A stretch of 25,404 bases of DNA from a virus (IMGVR_UViG_2534681674_000010); one strand, 5' to 3'; positions 17,318 to 25,334 are shown, counted from the first letter of the stretch. Notes: generated from the letters alone by a model not told the origin. A program made the numbers and translations.

Positions 17318-19762
17318 ATGAGCACTGATAAAGAAGAAATTGCACTGTATTACGAAGCCAAAAATGACAAAGTCAGAAAACGCCTTGGGATTAAAGGCGG
17401 TTTTTACTGGCGCACAGCAAAAAAATTATCGGTTGCAATATCACGGGGTGTTGTCGCAATGGACGATGCTGGATTTGACGAAGAGGATTTCAAAAAACCT
17501 GTTCGCGTGAATTTGCCCATTGTTAATGACCTGCCGCCTGAAGGTGTGTTCGATACTGAATTCTGCAACCGCTATGAAAAAGGCGGGGAAGATGGCATCA
17601 CAATGATATTTATAGCGCCTTCCCCCTCAGTTCAGGACAAACCAGCCAGCTCTGACAATACCAACGTCAATGGCGAAGACATGGCTGAGATTGAGGATAA
17701 TATGCTCCTGCCGATTTCCGGTCAGGAACTGCCCATTCGCTGGCTTGCGCAACATGGCAGCGAAAAACCGGTAACGCACGTTTCACGGGAAGAACTTCAG
17801 GCATTACATATCGCACGAGCTGAAGAACTGCCTGCTGTTACTGCCCTGGCTATTTCCCACAACACAAAGCTGCTCGACCCGCTGGAGATTCGCGACCTTC
17901 ACAAACTGGTACGCGACACAGACAAAGTTTTCCCTAATCCCGTTAATTCCAGTCTGGGGTTAATGACTGCTTTTTTCGAAGCATACCTGGACGCTGACTA
18001 TACCGATCGAGGTCTGCTGACAAAAGAGTGGATGAAAGGAAATCGTGTTTTACGCATCAGCCGCACGCCATCCGGCGCTAATGCTGGCGGAGGAATTCTT
18101 ACCGATCGCGGTGAAGGTTTTGTCCACGATGATGCGTCAGTAGAACGTGACGTTGCCGCTGGCGTTCTGGCCCGTTCAATGGACATCGATATTTACAATC
18201 CACATCCGGCACACGCCAAACGCATTGAAGAAATCGTTTCAGAGAATAAGCCGCCCTTTTCTGTTTTTCGTGACAAATTCATCGCCATGCCTGGTCACCT
18301 GGATTATTCCCGCGCGATAGTGGTTGCGTCCGTGAAAGAAGCACCAATTGGTATCGAGGCTACTCCCCACCGTGTTACCGAATATCTGAACAAAGTACTG
18401 ACCGAAACCGACCATGCCAACCCTGATCCAGAAATCGTGGATATTGCCTGCGGTCGCTCCTCTGCTCCAATGCCGCAGCGTGTAACAAAAGAAGGAAAAC
18501 AGGATGATGAAGAAAAACCGCAGCCATCTGGCGCAATGGCAGATGAACAGGCAACGACTGAAGCAGTGGAACCGGATACAACTGAACATAATCAGGACAC
18601 GCAGTCGATGGATGCTCAGCCACAGATAAATTCTGTTGATGCGAAATATCAGAAACTGCGGGCAGAACTCCATGAAGCCAGGAAAAACATTCCGCCCCAA
18701 AATCCTGTCGATGCAGACAAATTACTGGCTGCCTCTCGCGGAGAATTTGTTGAAGGGATTAGCGACCCGAATGATCCGAAATGGATTAAGGGGATCCAGA
18801 CCCGCGATTCTGTGTACCAGAATCAGCCAGAAACGGAACAGAACGACCAGAAAGCGGAACAGAACAGCCCAAATACGCAACAAAACGAGCCAGAAACGAA
18901 ACAACCTGAACCAGTAGTGCAACAGGAACCGGAAAAGATCTGCACCGCCTGCGGTCAGAGGAGTGGCGGCAACTGCCCTGATTGTGGCGCGGTGATGGGC
19001 GACGCAACATACCAGGAAACATTCGATGACAAGAACCTGGTTGAAGTTCAGGAAGACGATTCGGAGAAAATGGAAGGCGCTGAACATCCACACAAGGAGA
19101 ATGCTGGCAGCGCTCAGGACCACGCCAGCGATAGTGAAACTGGCGAGACGGCAGATCCCTTAATTACGGTGAACGGTCATCGCATTATCACATCCACCAG
19201 CAGGACGTGTGACCATCTAATGATCGACCTTGAAACCATGGGAAAAAATCCTGATGCCCCGATTATCTCAATAGGTGCAATATTTTTCGATCCGCAAACC
19301 GGAGATATGGGACCGGAATTTAGTAAGACTATCGATCTGGAAACTGCTGGCGGAGTCATTGATCGGGACACCATTAAATGGTGGCTTAAGCAATCACGCG
19401 AAGCGCAATCTGCCATTATGACCGATGAAATCCCGTTAGATGATGCACTGTTACAATTGCGGGAATTTATCGACGAAAACTCCGGTGAATTTTTTGTTCA
19501 GGTCTGGGGAAATGGAGCCAACTTCGACAACACGATTTTGCGCCGTTCATACGAACGGCAGGGGATCCCCTGCCCGTGGCGTTACTACAACGATCGCGAT
19601 GTACGCACAATCGTTGAGCTGGGGAAAGCCATAGACTTCGATGCCAGAACTGCTATCCCATTCGAAGGTGAGCGCCACAATGCGCTGGATGACGCTCGTT
19701 ACCAGGCAAAATACGTTTCAGCTATCTGGCAAAAACTGATCCCGAATCAGGCTGATTTTTAA
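17318..19762 (+). CDS. 814-aa YdfE-position protein with C-terminal DEDDh (DnaQ-like) 3'-5' exonuclease domain
   Basis: Exo motifs [25 protein letters not shown] in last ~180 aa; internal [16 protein letters not shown] zinc ribbon; acidic Q/E/P-rich low-complexity linker; GAGG RBS. Confidence 0.7.
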
Positions 19763-19826
19763 TGTTCAACCCCGGTCGTTGCCCACCAGCTATAGTGGCG
19801 GCGACCATGATTAGCGAACGACGCTC

Positions 19827-20075
19827 ATGGCAAGACTTATTCTGCTCACTGAGTGGGCAAAAGAGGAATTCAGTGAACCGGTCCCTACTCCGAGTACGTT
19901 AAGTAAATACGCTAAAGCCGGAATGATATTTCCTCTCCCCAAAAAAGTTGGAAGACGCTGGCGAGTGGATCCGCAAGCTCGCTTTGTCGGAATGGTAAAC
20001 AAGCCGGAGGTGATCGCCACAGATCACCCTGCTTTGAAGAGGATACTGGAAGATGGCGCGCCCGCGAAAATATAA
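19827..20075 (+). CDS. xis: excisionase-like DNA-binding protein
   Basis: 82 aa; KYAKAGMIFPLPKKVGRRWRV winged-helix-like; directly upstream of and overlapping int. Confidence 0.55.
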   Translation: MARLILLTEWAKEEFSEPVPTPSTLSKYAKAGMIFPLPKKVGRRWRVDPQARFVGMVNKPEVIATDHPALKRILEDGAPAKI

Positions 20076-21182
20076 AACCGATGTTCCGGGATTATCTCCG
20101 TATTTTGACAAAAGAAATAACAAAGTTTACTGGCGTTACAGGCATCCCATAACAGGCAAAAATCACGGTCTCGGCAGTATTGACCAGAAACTGGCAGAAA
20201 CTATTGCAGCAGAAGCGAACAGCCGTCTTGCCCGGCAGCAAATGGAACAAATGCTCAGTCTGCAGGAGAAAATTATTAGTGATACCGGCGGTTCATCAAC
20301 CGTTACCATTTTTCTGAATAATTACAGAAAAATTCAACAGGAAAGATATGAAAACGGCGAGATCAGACTCAACACGCTGAAACAGAAAGCGGCCCCTCTC
20401 AGGGTATTTGATGAACGTTTTGGCACCAGACCGTTAGATGCCATAACCGTAAAAGATGTGGTATCAGTACTGGAAGAGTACAAGGCCAGAGGACATAACA
20501 GAATGGGACAAATTTTCAGGAAAGTACTGATCGATGTTTTCCGGGAAGCTCAGCAAACGGGCGATGTCCCGCCAGGCTTTAACCCTGCAGAATCTGCAAA
20601 AAAACCGCAGGTGCGGATATCAAGACAGCGACTGACTTTTGATGAGTGGATGATGATTTATAACGCAGCGGAAAAGGATGGTTACTTTTTACAGCGCGGT
20701 ATGCTGCTGGCACTGATGACAGGCCAGCGCCTTTCAGATATTTGCAAAATGCAATTTTCGGATATCCGGGATGGTTATCTTCATGTCGAACAGCAAAAAA
20801 CAGGAACCCGGATTGCCATCCCTCTGGCTCTGCGTTGCGATAAATTAAATCTCACCCTGGATGATGTGGTGTCATCCTGCCGCGATTGCGTTCTTAGTCC
20901 GTGGCTATTGCACCACCATCACGCGAAAGGGACAGCTAAGCGCGGCGGGATGGTTAAGCCAGCAACATTAACCGTTGCATTTAAAAAAGCCCGGGATTCT
21001 GTGGATTACAACTGGCGTGCTAATGGCACCCACCCTCTTTCCATGAGCAGAGATCTTTATCAGAGCGATTGTTCAGAGAGCAGGGGGTTGATACCAAAAT
21101 TTTGCTAGGCCATTCGAATCAAAAAATGATCGATATTTACAACGACGCACGCGGTAAGGAATGGAAAAAACTGGTCATTTGA
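20053..21182 (+). pseudogene. int: tyrosine integrase (lambda Int family) with apparent 1-nt deletion near 21025-21035
   Basis: ORF 20053..21108 is integrase-like through ...NWRANGT; conserved C-terminus FHEQRSLSERLF...LLGHSNQKMIDIYNDARGKEWKKLVI (HxxR and catalytic Tyr) is in another frame ending 21182. Confidence 0.75.
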
Positions 21183-21188
21183 TGACCA

Positions 21189-23830: not shown

Positions 23831-23843
23831 GTGAAGCTGTCGG

Positions 23844-24092
23844 CTATTTCATTCCGCCAATATTTTCCCACCTCCCGTCAGCACGCAGGATTTGCAGCGG
23901 TCTTACCACGCACTGTATCTGCTTTTTATCCGCATCCAGTATCACCACCTGCGTGATTACCCTGTCCTGCTCTGGGATAATGCCATTCTCATCTGACTCC
24001 AGGATGTCTGCCGGCCCCAGTCGCAGCTGTGCTGTAAGCAACTCCACGTGTTCACGGCCATCATGCTTTCCGCAACCACACAGACGCTGCAT
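23844..24092 (-). CDS. hypothetical ORF fragment downstream of tail fibre
   Basis: 82-codon ORF with protein-like composition; upstream in-frame sequence closed. Confidence 0.25.
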   Translation of the reverse strand: MQRLCGCGKHDGREHVELLTAQLRLGPADILESDENGIIPEQDRVITQVVILDADKKQIQCVVRPLQILRADGRWENIGGMK

Positions 24093-24180
24093 AAGTTTTT
24101 TAGTATATTCACGTCATTCTCCTGTTCTGCCTGTATCACTGCCCACTTCATCCAGCCCCTTAACATCCTGCCACGGCCCG

Positions 24181-25325
24181 TCACCAAACCTGACCTGCAA
24201 ATGCTGAAAAACCCTGAACCCGTGTGGCATCTTTGGGGTCAAGAAAGGTCAGTCCGGTGATGAGTGCGCCATCTGTATCCGGGAACCAGCCATGGCTGTT
24301 TGTCTCAATAATGTTTCCGGCCCCAGACGAAAACGGATTTGTGTCTCCCCCGGGTCGCCCTTCGGTCCCTGAGGTCCGGTTGCCCCCACCGGGCCAGCCG
24401 CACCTGTTTCTCCTTTCGGTCCCTGTGGGCCTGCCGGGCCTGCCGCACCGGTATCTCCCTTTGGACCCTGTGGACCTGCATTTCCCGTCAGACCGGTCTC
24501 TCCCCGCTCTCCCTTATCCCCCTTCGGCCCCTGAGGGCCAGCGGGCCCCTGTTCCCCCTTTGGCCCGGGAGGTCCCACCACGGTGGGGATTCGGTTTACG
24601 GCGTCTTCCGCCGCTATCCTGCTTTGTTCCGCTGACTGTGCGCTTTCTGCTGACTCCCGGGCTTTTTCTGTTGCGGTCGTTGCATCCCTGGCTGCATTAC
24701 CGGCTGCACTTTCTGCCGTCTTTCTTGACAATTCAGCTTCTGCTGCACTTTGTGATGACTCACTGGCTTTTTGAGCGGCCGCAGAAGCCGAGGACGAGGA
24801 CGCATCCTCTGACTGCTTTGCAGCGGCTGCACTTTCTGCCGCCTGCCGGGCTGACTCCGATGCATCCCCTGCTGAAGTGTCAGCATTTGCAGCGCTCTCT
24901 TCTGCCTTACTGGATGATATGCCGGCATTCCTCGCGGACGTCTCCGCCTCTCCGGCATTCTTCTTCGCCTCCTCAGCGTGACGCGCCGCTTCTTCCACCA
25001 TCAGTTCAAAACGACGCAGTGCCTCCGGCCGGACGTCATCCTCCGACATGGCACCGAGAAAATCATTCAGCGTCCCCGGTTGAGAATCTTCATACACGGT
25101 GATGGTCCCGGCATGTGACGGCGGGAATCCTTCCACCAACAGAATGACGCTGTACTGACCGTACTCAACGTCCATGCTGTAACGACCGGCTTCATCCGGA
25201 TTTTCAGAGGCCACCGTGTTCACCACCACCGTGCTGCTGGTCCGTCTGGCTTTCAGTTGAATGGTGCAGTTCTCTACCGGTTTTCCTGTGCCGTCTTTCA
25301 GTACACCTGAAATCTTTACTGCCAT
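24181..25325 (-). pseudogene. stf: side tail fibre protein (lambda Stf-like N-terminus, Ala/Ser/Glu-rich linker, collagen-like Gly-X-Y repeats) with apparent 1-nt deletion near 24316-24324
   Basis: [28 protein letters not shown]... matches recalled lambda Stf; [28 protein letters not shown]... repeats; after ...RFRLGP the sequence [30 protein letters not shown] continues in another frame to 24181. Confidence 0.7.
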
Positions 25326-25334
25326 ATTCACCCC

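Follow-up and report, generated by a model that had tools for sequence, protein, structure and literature searches.

How does the integrase end of a lambdoid phage come to be joined directly to the tail-fibre side, and to what kind of molecule does such a joint belong? The question is raised by IMGVR_UViG_2534681674_000010, a viral stretch of 25,404 nt (in the following the window), in which an exonuclease gene, the excisionase gene xis, the integrase gene int, three TTTTGCAGAG repeats, a 121-bp copy of the 3' end of the host gene ompW, a moron encoding an OspG-family kinase, the insertion sequence IS1 and the tail-fibre gene stf form one continuous run. This run crosses a complete phage attachment site (attP), and the window probably spans the joint at which two lambdoid prophage units of the PPompW group meet head to tail inside a chromosome of the enterohaemorrhagic Escherichia coli (EHEC) type. 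The elements of the run had been listed as contiguous in an initial annotation, and each of them was recovered at or near its expected place with domain calls from Pfam and further annotation from RefSeq features of near-identical loci. Overall the DNA is of the lambdoid prophage type known from EHEC strains, with up to 99.9% identity to E. coli chromosomes and patchy matches to hundreds of records of Stx-converting and PPompW phages. Both sides of the internal attachment site are phage DNA in the same orientation, with exonuclease, xis and int to the left and kinase, IS1 and stf to the right, and both blocks are colinear with the prophage map. The left edge of the window cuts through the lysis genes, and cos lies beyond it.

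The nature of the site was established by a four-way alignment. Besides the window it comprised the ompW gene of E. coli K-12, which represents the unoccupied attB, and both ends of the single ompW prophage in the O103:H2 strain FWSEC0007. A 28-bp core, GTGGTATCGATATCCATGTACCACACTG (21319-21346; ompW nt 521-548), is identical in all four. A direct reading of this core reveals the inverted hexamers GTGGTA and TACCAC, and according to the alignment strand exchange must fall inside it. In the window the core is flanked on its left by the int-side arm of the FWSEC0007 prophage and on its right by the distal arm of the same prophage, which in FWSEC0007 adjoins an orphan ompW 3' piece and yciE. None of the host-specific flanks of K-12 or of the prophage boundaries in FWSEC0007 is found in the window. 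With an int-side arm on the left, a distal arm on the right and no host flank on either side, the junction has exactly the structure P'-O-P, the product that excision of this 45-kb prophage would yield. The initial annotation had read the gene order as the vegetative, attP-type map rather than a simple attL or attR end and had proposed a comparison with an intact ompW locus; the alignment bears out this reading, as the core is shared with K-12 and the host flanks are not.

The match to FWSEC0007 extends far beyond the core. Positions 1-21346 are 99.9% identical to one end of its single 45-kb ompW prophage, the end beside full-length ompW and yciC, and the approximately 940 bp past the core (21347-22284) are about 99.9% identical to the opposite end. 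Further to the right, across IS1 and stf, identity drops to 98.9% (22275-24539) and then to 97.6% (24493-25404). As judged from these alignments, the contiguity of the two ends is not a chance resemblance.

By its sequence, the junction is an unrecombined and complete attP, composed of three P' sites, the 121-bp ompW surrogate, the 28-bp core and a P arm of approximately 130 bp with a fourth site. Behind the stop codon of int and ahead of the ompW copy there are three tandem TTTTGCAGAG repeats (21190, 21203 and 21214). In the entire 25.4-kb window the motif TTTTGCAGA(G/A) occurs in four copies, at these three positions and at 21467, and all four share one orientation and lie within 290 bp around the core. 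The fourth arm-type site, TTTTGCAGAA, occupies 21467-21476, 120 bp past the core on the P-arm side, so that putative Int-binding sites are present on both arms. The P' repeats are identical in the prophage PPompW_132418 and at every int-side attachment site examined. The P arm (21347-21478) is identical to the host-side end of the prophages in FWSEC0007 and in the O103 strain WL1467, and over 130 bp it is about 80% similar to that of the unrelated nleG/espM1 PPompW of TW14359 and PPompW_132418, with the arm site retained. This similarity ends directly behind the arm site, which points to a functional edge of attP at this position. As a further observation, a perfect 12-bp hairpin with a 3-nt loop (AAAACTGGTCAT / ATGACCAGTTTT; 21167-21193) reaches across the int stop codon into the first arm-type repeat and resembles a terminator.

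The attP of phage lambda has three tandem P' sites plus P-arm sites, and in a lambda dilysogen, following the Campbell model, an internal attP persists at the P'-O-P joint. The window shows what characterizes a site of this type: the core equals attB, both flanks are phage arms, arm repeats are found on both sides, and int and xis are adjacent. As in a tandem lambda dilysogen, P'-O-P is placed between int-xis and the b-region or tail-fibre side, three tandem arm sites on the int side are complemented by the opposite arm, and Int has an N-terminal arm-binding domain. The core and the target differ from those of lambda, the target being coding sequence of ompW for which the phage brings a surrogate 3' end, and only one predicted P-arm site was recognised in the window whereas lambda has two.

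The ompW-derived sequence has a reading frame on the minus strand (21228-21353) that encodes ...VWYMDIDTTAKYKSGVTTVKDSVRLDPWVFMFSAGYRF*, no more than the C-terminal 38 residues of OmpW, and it ends in a stop codon at 21354-21356, three codons beyond the core. Host ompW 5' coding sequence continuing from 21354 onwards had been named in advance as the observation that would speak against an attP-type joint; what follows the stop is the conserved phage P arm. The phage copy is identical to K-12 ompW in 90 of 116 nt (approximately 78%), with 7 amino-acid changes, and the 121 bp at 21226-21346 match the annotated att repeat_region of LC567822 in 119 of 121 positions. On integration, this copy would replace the 3' end of the host gene, and with the host end substituted in this way ompW would remain intact. 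Note that the seven changes all fall among the ten residues at OmpW 185-194 (NYKLGGAQQH to KYKSGVTTVK) and the other 28 C-terminal residues are the same (21228-21346; FWSEC0007 27228-27866). Lysogeny would thus rewrite a short stretch of OmpW that is possibly surface-exposed.

Prophages of the PPompW group were defined by Nakamura et al. (2021, PLoS Pathog); of the 767 complete E. coli genomes in that study, 44% contain them (PMC8112680). The int gene of the window is 99.6% identical to intE of PPompW_132418 at the nucleotide level, over 1,130 of 1,131 nt and with one gap; PPompW_132418 stems from the same study and is not strain 112648 itself. The match lies above the group thresholds, which for the reference int are >90% in identity as well as in coverage, and the 121-bp ompW-derived attachment sequence is found next to int, so that by both characters the window falls within the PPompW group as published. 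It shares with the PPompW of Shiga toxin-producing and enteropathogenic E. coli the integrase, the 121-bp ompW attachment sequence, the P' repeats and a lambda-like layout with a distal effector locus (PMC8112680). The distal end of the window is an OspG-kinase/IS1 moron, however, in place of their nleG/espM1/nleA effector locus; the 21-bp attB-in-PP_1 of Nakamura et al. is absent from the window, and both sides of its junction are of the same PPompW subtype. The same work sequenced attP from mitomycin C-induced PPompW circles, detected excision of related PPompWs by polymerase chain reaction, and described, in addition to more complex clusters, a tandem of two PPompWs in O157:H7 (PMC8112680). 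With PPompW, its attP and tandem PPompWs all published, a PPompW attP kept inside a prophage array is a feature of an already known kind.

We then asked where else this joint occurs, using a 651-bp query across the junction against 5,426 complete E. coli genomes, and examined three of the settings. The full query was found in 17 of the genomes, always in the chromosome and in six cases at 100% identity. Recovery of the same junction from 17 genomes, each finished independently, shows that the configuration is real. A true tandem pair of PPompW prophages at ompW is present in WL1467 (NZ_CP193491 2,835,631-2,931,395), in the order yciE, orphan ompW', kinase-IS1-stf to exo-xis-int, junction, kinase to exo-xis-int, full ompW and yciC. 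The two serial units each open with the DUF4376/transposase/OspG-kinase/IS1/stf module, and the junction is 99.5% identical to that of the window; the left unit differs from the left unit of the window in its head, immunity and accessory modules.

In EC4115 (NC_011353 2,891,356-2,985,110), the junction is located between btsS and mlrA and not at ompW. Here, the prophage at mlrA (yehV) is interrupted in a shared DUF826-DUF1378-DUF6645 block by one whole, circularly permuted genome of the PPompW type. The outbreak sibling TW14359 has a single prophage at mlrA that lacks this 45-kb insert, the EC4115 genome is 44 kb larger, and EC4115 retains a prophage copy at ompW as well. Such an arrangement is what results when a circular phage genome recombines once, through homology, with a related prophage already in place, an event that leaves attP untouched. 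A large inversion between prophages was also considered for EC4115 and ruled out, as the btsS and mlrA flanks are normal and TW14359 carries the same prophage minus the insert. Judging by coordinates and colinearity, TR01 carries the same mlrA insert. In the arrays of EC4115 and TR01 the 651-bp junction is 100% identical and positions 1573-24539 of the window are matched colinearly at 97.8% identity; the first 1.5 kb of the window, the lysis cassette, is of the ompW-phage type, whereas theirs is of the mlrA-prophage type. We found no published description of such a homologous insertion for PPompW in the literature searched, and this is the only mildly unusual point in the comparison.

The third setting is a three-prophage array with ompW-type attachment junctions in TX 265-1 (NZ_CP038290 2,618,001-2,762,000), in which a different phage with the same int type is followed by the junction, the kinase phage and an nleG/espM1/nleA PPompW. 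Note that the leftmost unit of this array contains a truncated gpJ fused to Mu-like genes (mom, com, baseplate), which suggests further rearrangement. O157:H7 strains, TW14359 among them, commonly have a shorter related junction, in which int, the ompW copy and the 130-bp P arm are followed by other morons.

The initial annotation had left the choice between a phage genome, an excised circle and a tandem-lysogen junction, and the comparative data favor the last of these, with 17 of 17 complete-genome cases being chromosomal. Several observations nevertheless weigh against a junction of two serial prophages. Since the window contains no host gene, its chromosomal setting is deduced from relatives rather than seen. 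Both sides of the junction are of the same phage type, as they would be in a free or circular phage genome, and circles with this attP do form upon induction of PPompW (PMC8112680), so that one of them could end up as an assembled contig. The whole window is found in no complete E. coli genome, the best covering 88% of it (FRIK944) with a different neighbor, and the best junction cases, EC4115 and TR01, diverge in its first 1.5 kb. Finally, many homopolymer indels indicate an error-prone source assembly. A free phage genome, or an excised and circularised prophage recovered as its own contig, would present the same order as the vegetative map of one PPompW-type phage, and we regard this explanation as rather unlikely. 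It would account for the match of both window halves to the two ends of a single prophage, with the junction as the predicted excision product, and for the attP sequences obtained from circles after mitomycin C treatment. It is also in line with a single 3.1-kb metagenome contig in which the junction-specific pattern occurs as int-attP-moron, and with other lambdoid phage records that share the general gene order, for instance that of Evi, which is a distinct phage. However, the pattern has no exact match in IMG/VR and none in the GTDB representatives, the best of 50,697 phage records covers 34% of the window, the PPompW records stop at 21346, and no inspected record spans the junction. Moreover, PPompWs that were tested excised and circularised and were not packaged (PMC8112680), all complete-genome junctions are chromosomal, and IS1 is inserted in the tail-fibre assembly region of this type.

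We consider it improbable that the joint is an assembly artefact, in which the two ends of one ompW prophage were misjoined via the 28-bp core and the ompW homology or a minority of reads from an excised circle was incorporated. Approximately ten homopolymer indels in 25 kb with respect to the nearest relative, breaking lysozyme, holin, int, IS1 and stf, would fit such an origin, as would the collagen-repeat region of stf, which lacks about 100 bp by comparison with every complete genome. Yet the identical junction in the 17 finished genomes and in the metagenome contig argues for a genuine joint, and homopolymer errors are typical of long reads, which easily cross such junctions. That the window is an ordinary prophage end, attL or attR, beside host ompW is hardly conceivable. 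An ompW-derived sequence does adjoin int, as it does at every normal PPompW end, but the ompW sequence here comprises no more than the final 121 bp, in a diverged phage copy whose frame is closed by the stop codon, and beyond it the 130-bp conserved P arm, phage morons and stf take the place of the ompW 5' half or yciC. The four-way alignment refutes an end of this kind.

For the junction between two serial prophages the following origin can be proposed. The left unit would end with exo-xis-int and the right unit would open with its moron and tail-fibre end, an order that may arise when a circular phage genome enters a chromosome already holding a related prophage. Entry could proceed by Int-mediated recombination at an existing hybrid attachment site, which would yield a tandem pair at ompW, or by a single homologous crossover inside the related resident prophage. 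When the circle enters via another site or via homology, attP is not cut and would therefore persist as an intact internal joint. Both entry routes can be seen directly in finished genomes, and the P'-O-P structure and PPompW membership can be read from the window itself. By analogy with classical lambda dilysogen genetics, the segment leading from the cos of the right unit through its tail genes, attP and the early region of the left unit to the cos of the left unit might be packaged as a hybrid phage without Int or Xis. Likewise, as classical lambda biology would predict, the array could be resolved or rearranged through the action of Int on attP and on the hybrid sites at the outer ends.

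An unlikely but more specific origin would be a fresh duplication of the EC4115 kind, in which a PPompW circle, once excised, returned to the chromosome at another locus by homologous recombination with a related prophage there. If true, a live ectopic attP would be situated far from attL and attR, with its cognate Int supplied in trans from the ompW copy, and could drive Int-mediated inversions or deletions on the megabase scale. Combined with cos-to-cos packaging, such an event could allow the release of hybrid phages and a higher dosage of effector genes. For serial prophages in general, internal attP junctions mark polylysogeny, one way in which EHEC strains gather effector-carrying prophages. 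They may permit the release of hybrid phages without excision, and the repeated attachment sites can promote rearrangements. They also matter for annotation. Software that detects prophages on the premise that int and tail-fibre genes lie at the two extremes of an element would cut such units in the wrong place or fuse them, and it could take the 121-bp ompW copy for the remains of a host gene at a prophage border.

The features around the junction are listed in Table 1. The exonuclease combines a RecE/ExoVIII-like N-terminal region with a C-terminal domain resembling 3'-5' exoribonucleases and is the last large gene of the early left region ahead of xis-int. The equivalent of xis is RefSeq WP_000113189.1, an annotated excisionase with the same placement in both EC4115 and FWSEC0007, and in this part of the sequence the sole difference between FWSEC0007 and the window is at 20366.

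Table 1. Features from the exonuclease gene to the tail-fibre gene, in window coordinates
Feature	Coordinates	Strand	Basis
Exonuclease	17318-19762	+	Pfam Exonuc_VIII 4e-34, Rv2179c-like 2e-67; 'exonuclease' in EC4115, FWSEC0007
Excisionase (xis)	19827-20075	+	Pfam Exc 1.3e-7; overlaps int start
PPompW-type tyrosine integrase (int)	20053-21182	+	Pfam Arm-DNA-bind_1 6.5e-22; Phage_integrase, profile positions 2-117/172 only
P' arm, three tandem arm-type repeats	21190-21223	+	motif search
Phage-borne last 121 bp of ompW	21226-21346	-	att repeat of LC567822; comparison with K-12 ompW
Common core GTGGTATCGATATCCATGTACCACACTG	21319-21346	.	four-way alignment
P arm (distal arm), ending in fourth arm-type site	21347-21478	+	host-side ends in FWSEC0007 and WL1467
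DUF4376 gene remnant and transposase gene remnant	21577-22170 (approximate, transferred from EC4115)	-	RefSeq pseudogenes in EC4115, FWSEC0007, WL1467
OspG-family effector kinase (moron)	22205-22723	-	Pfam OspG_kinase 1.3e-69
IS1, 767 bp	22872-23638	-	'IS1 family transposase', same position in EC4115, FWSEC0007, WL1467
Tail-fibre C-terminal domain protein	23844-24092	-	Pfam Phage_fiber_C 9e-37
stf N-terminal domain with collagen-like repeats	24249-25331	-	Pfam phage_tail_N 4e-69, Collagen

Several genes in the window are disrupted by small indels. In comparison with the frame of the 376-residue Int of EC4115, one C is missing from a C-run at 21029, and the int frame is shifted after ...NWRANGT. 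The open reading frame stops at 21108 because of this loss, although the gene truly extends to 21182, and the region with HxxR, LLGH and the catalytic tyrosine is out of frame. An inherited allele was ruled out, as not one of the 1,817 copies from 1,700 complete genomes shows the frameshift. In total about ten indels separate the window from FWSEC0007 (705, 1705, 2408, 21029, 21773, 23328, 23803, 24096, 24207 and 24317); they are single-base, with one 2-base exception, and nearly all are in homopolymers. They split the genes for lysozyme (705) and holin (1705), alter the A6C motif of IS1 (23328) and frameshift stf (24096, 24207, 24317). The int frameshift and the other homopolymer indels are probably sequencing errors. 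With few substitutions beside the indels this is the simplest reading, and we consequently make no claim that the prophage is locked in place.

On the tail-fibre side, the kinase is OspG-like by the Pfam family OspG_kinase and thus no full-length effector of the NleH type. At about 22284 the kinase gene has an in-frame deletion of 66 bp (22 residues) between CTTTATCAT direct repeats. The longer form is found in all matches listed among the 113 genomes with the moron, and the metagenome contig likewise keeps the 66 bp. IS1 is one base short in its A6C frameshift motif and sits in the same place in relatives. It is flanked by no 9-bp target duplication, and the neighboring tail-assembly gene is present as a fragment only, which together suggest an IS1-associated deletion; this arrangement is common to FWSEC0007, EC4115 and WL1467. 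The 3' part of stf is frameshifted by the homopolymer indels, and when the stf side (23640-25404) was matched to the same genomes as the int side, nothing exceeded 98% identity. The shortened collagen-like repeats of stf (24480-24540) may be a private length variant or a collapsed repeat.

In the early region, 9705-10386 contains a pair of a RelE/ParE-type toxin and a helix-turn-helix antitoxin that is also present in FWSEC0007. The pair takes the place of another segment that is found in the copies of EC4115 and TW14359, and these copies have no match to window positions 9229-12081. ARAGORN found no tRNA in the window; the RefSeq annotation of FWSEC0007 and EC4115 has a 71-nt tRNA-Met at the place equivalent to approximately 4924-4994.

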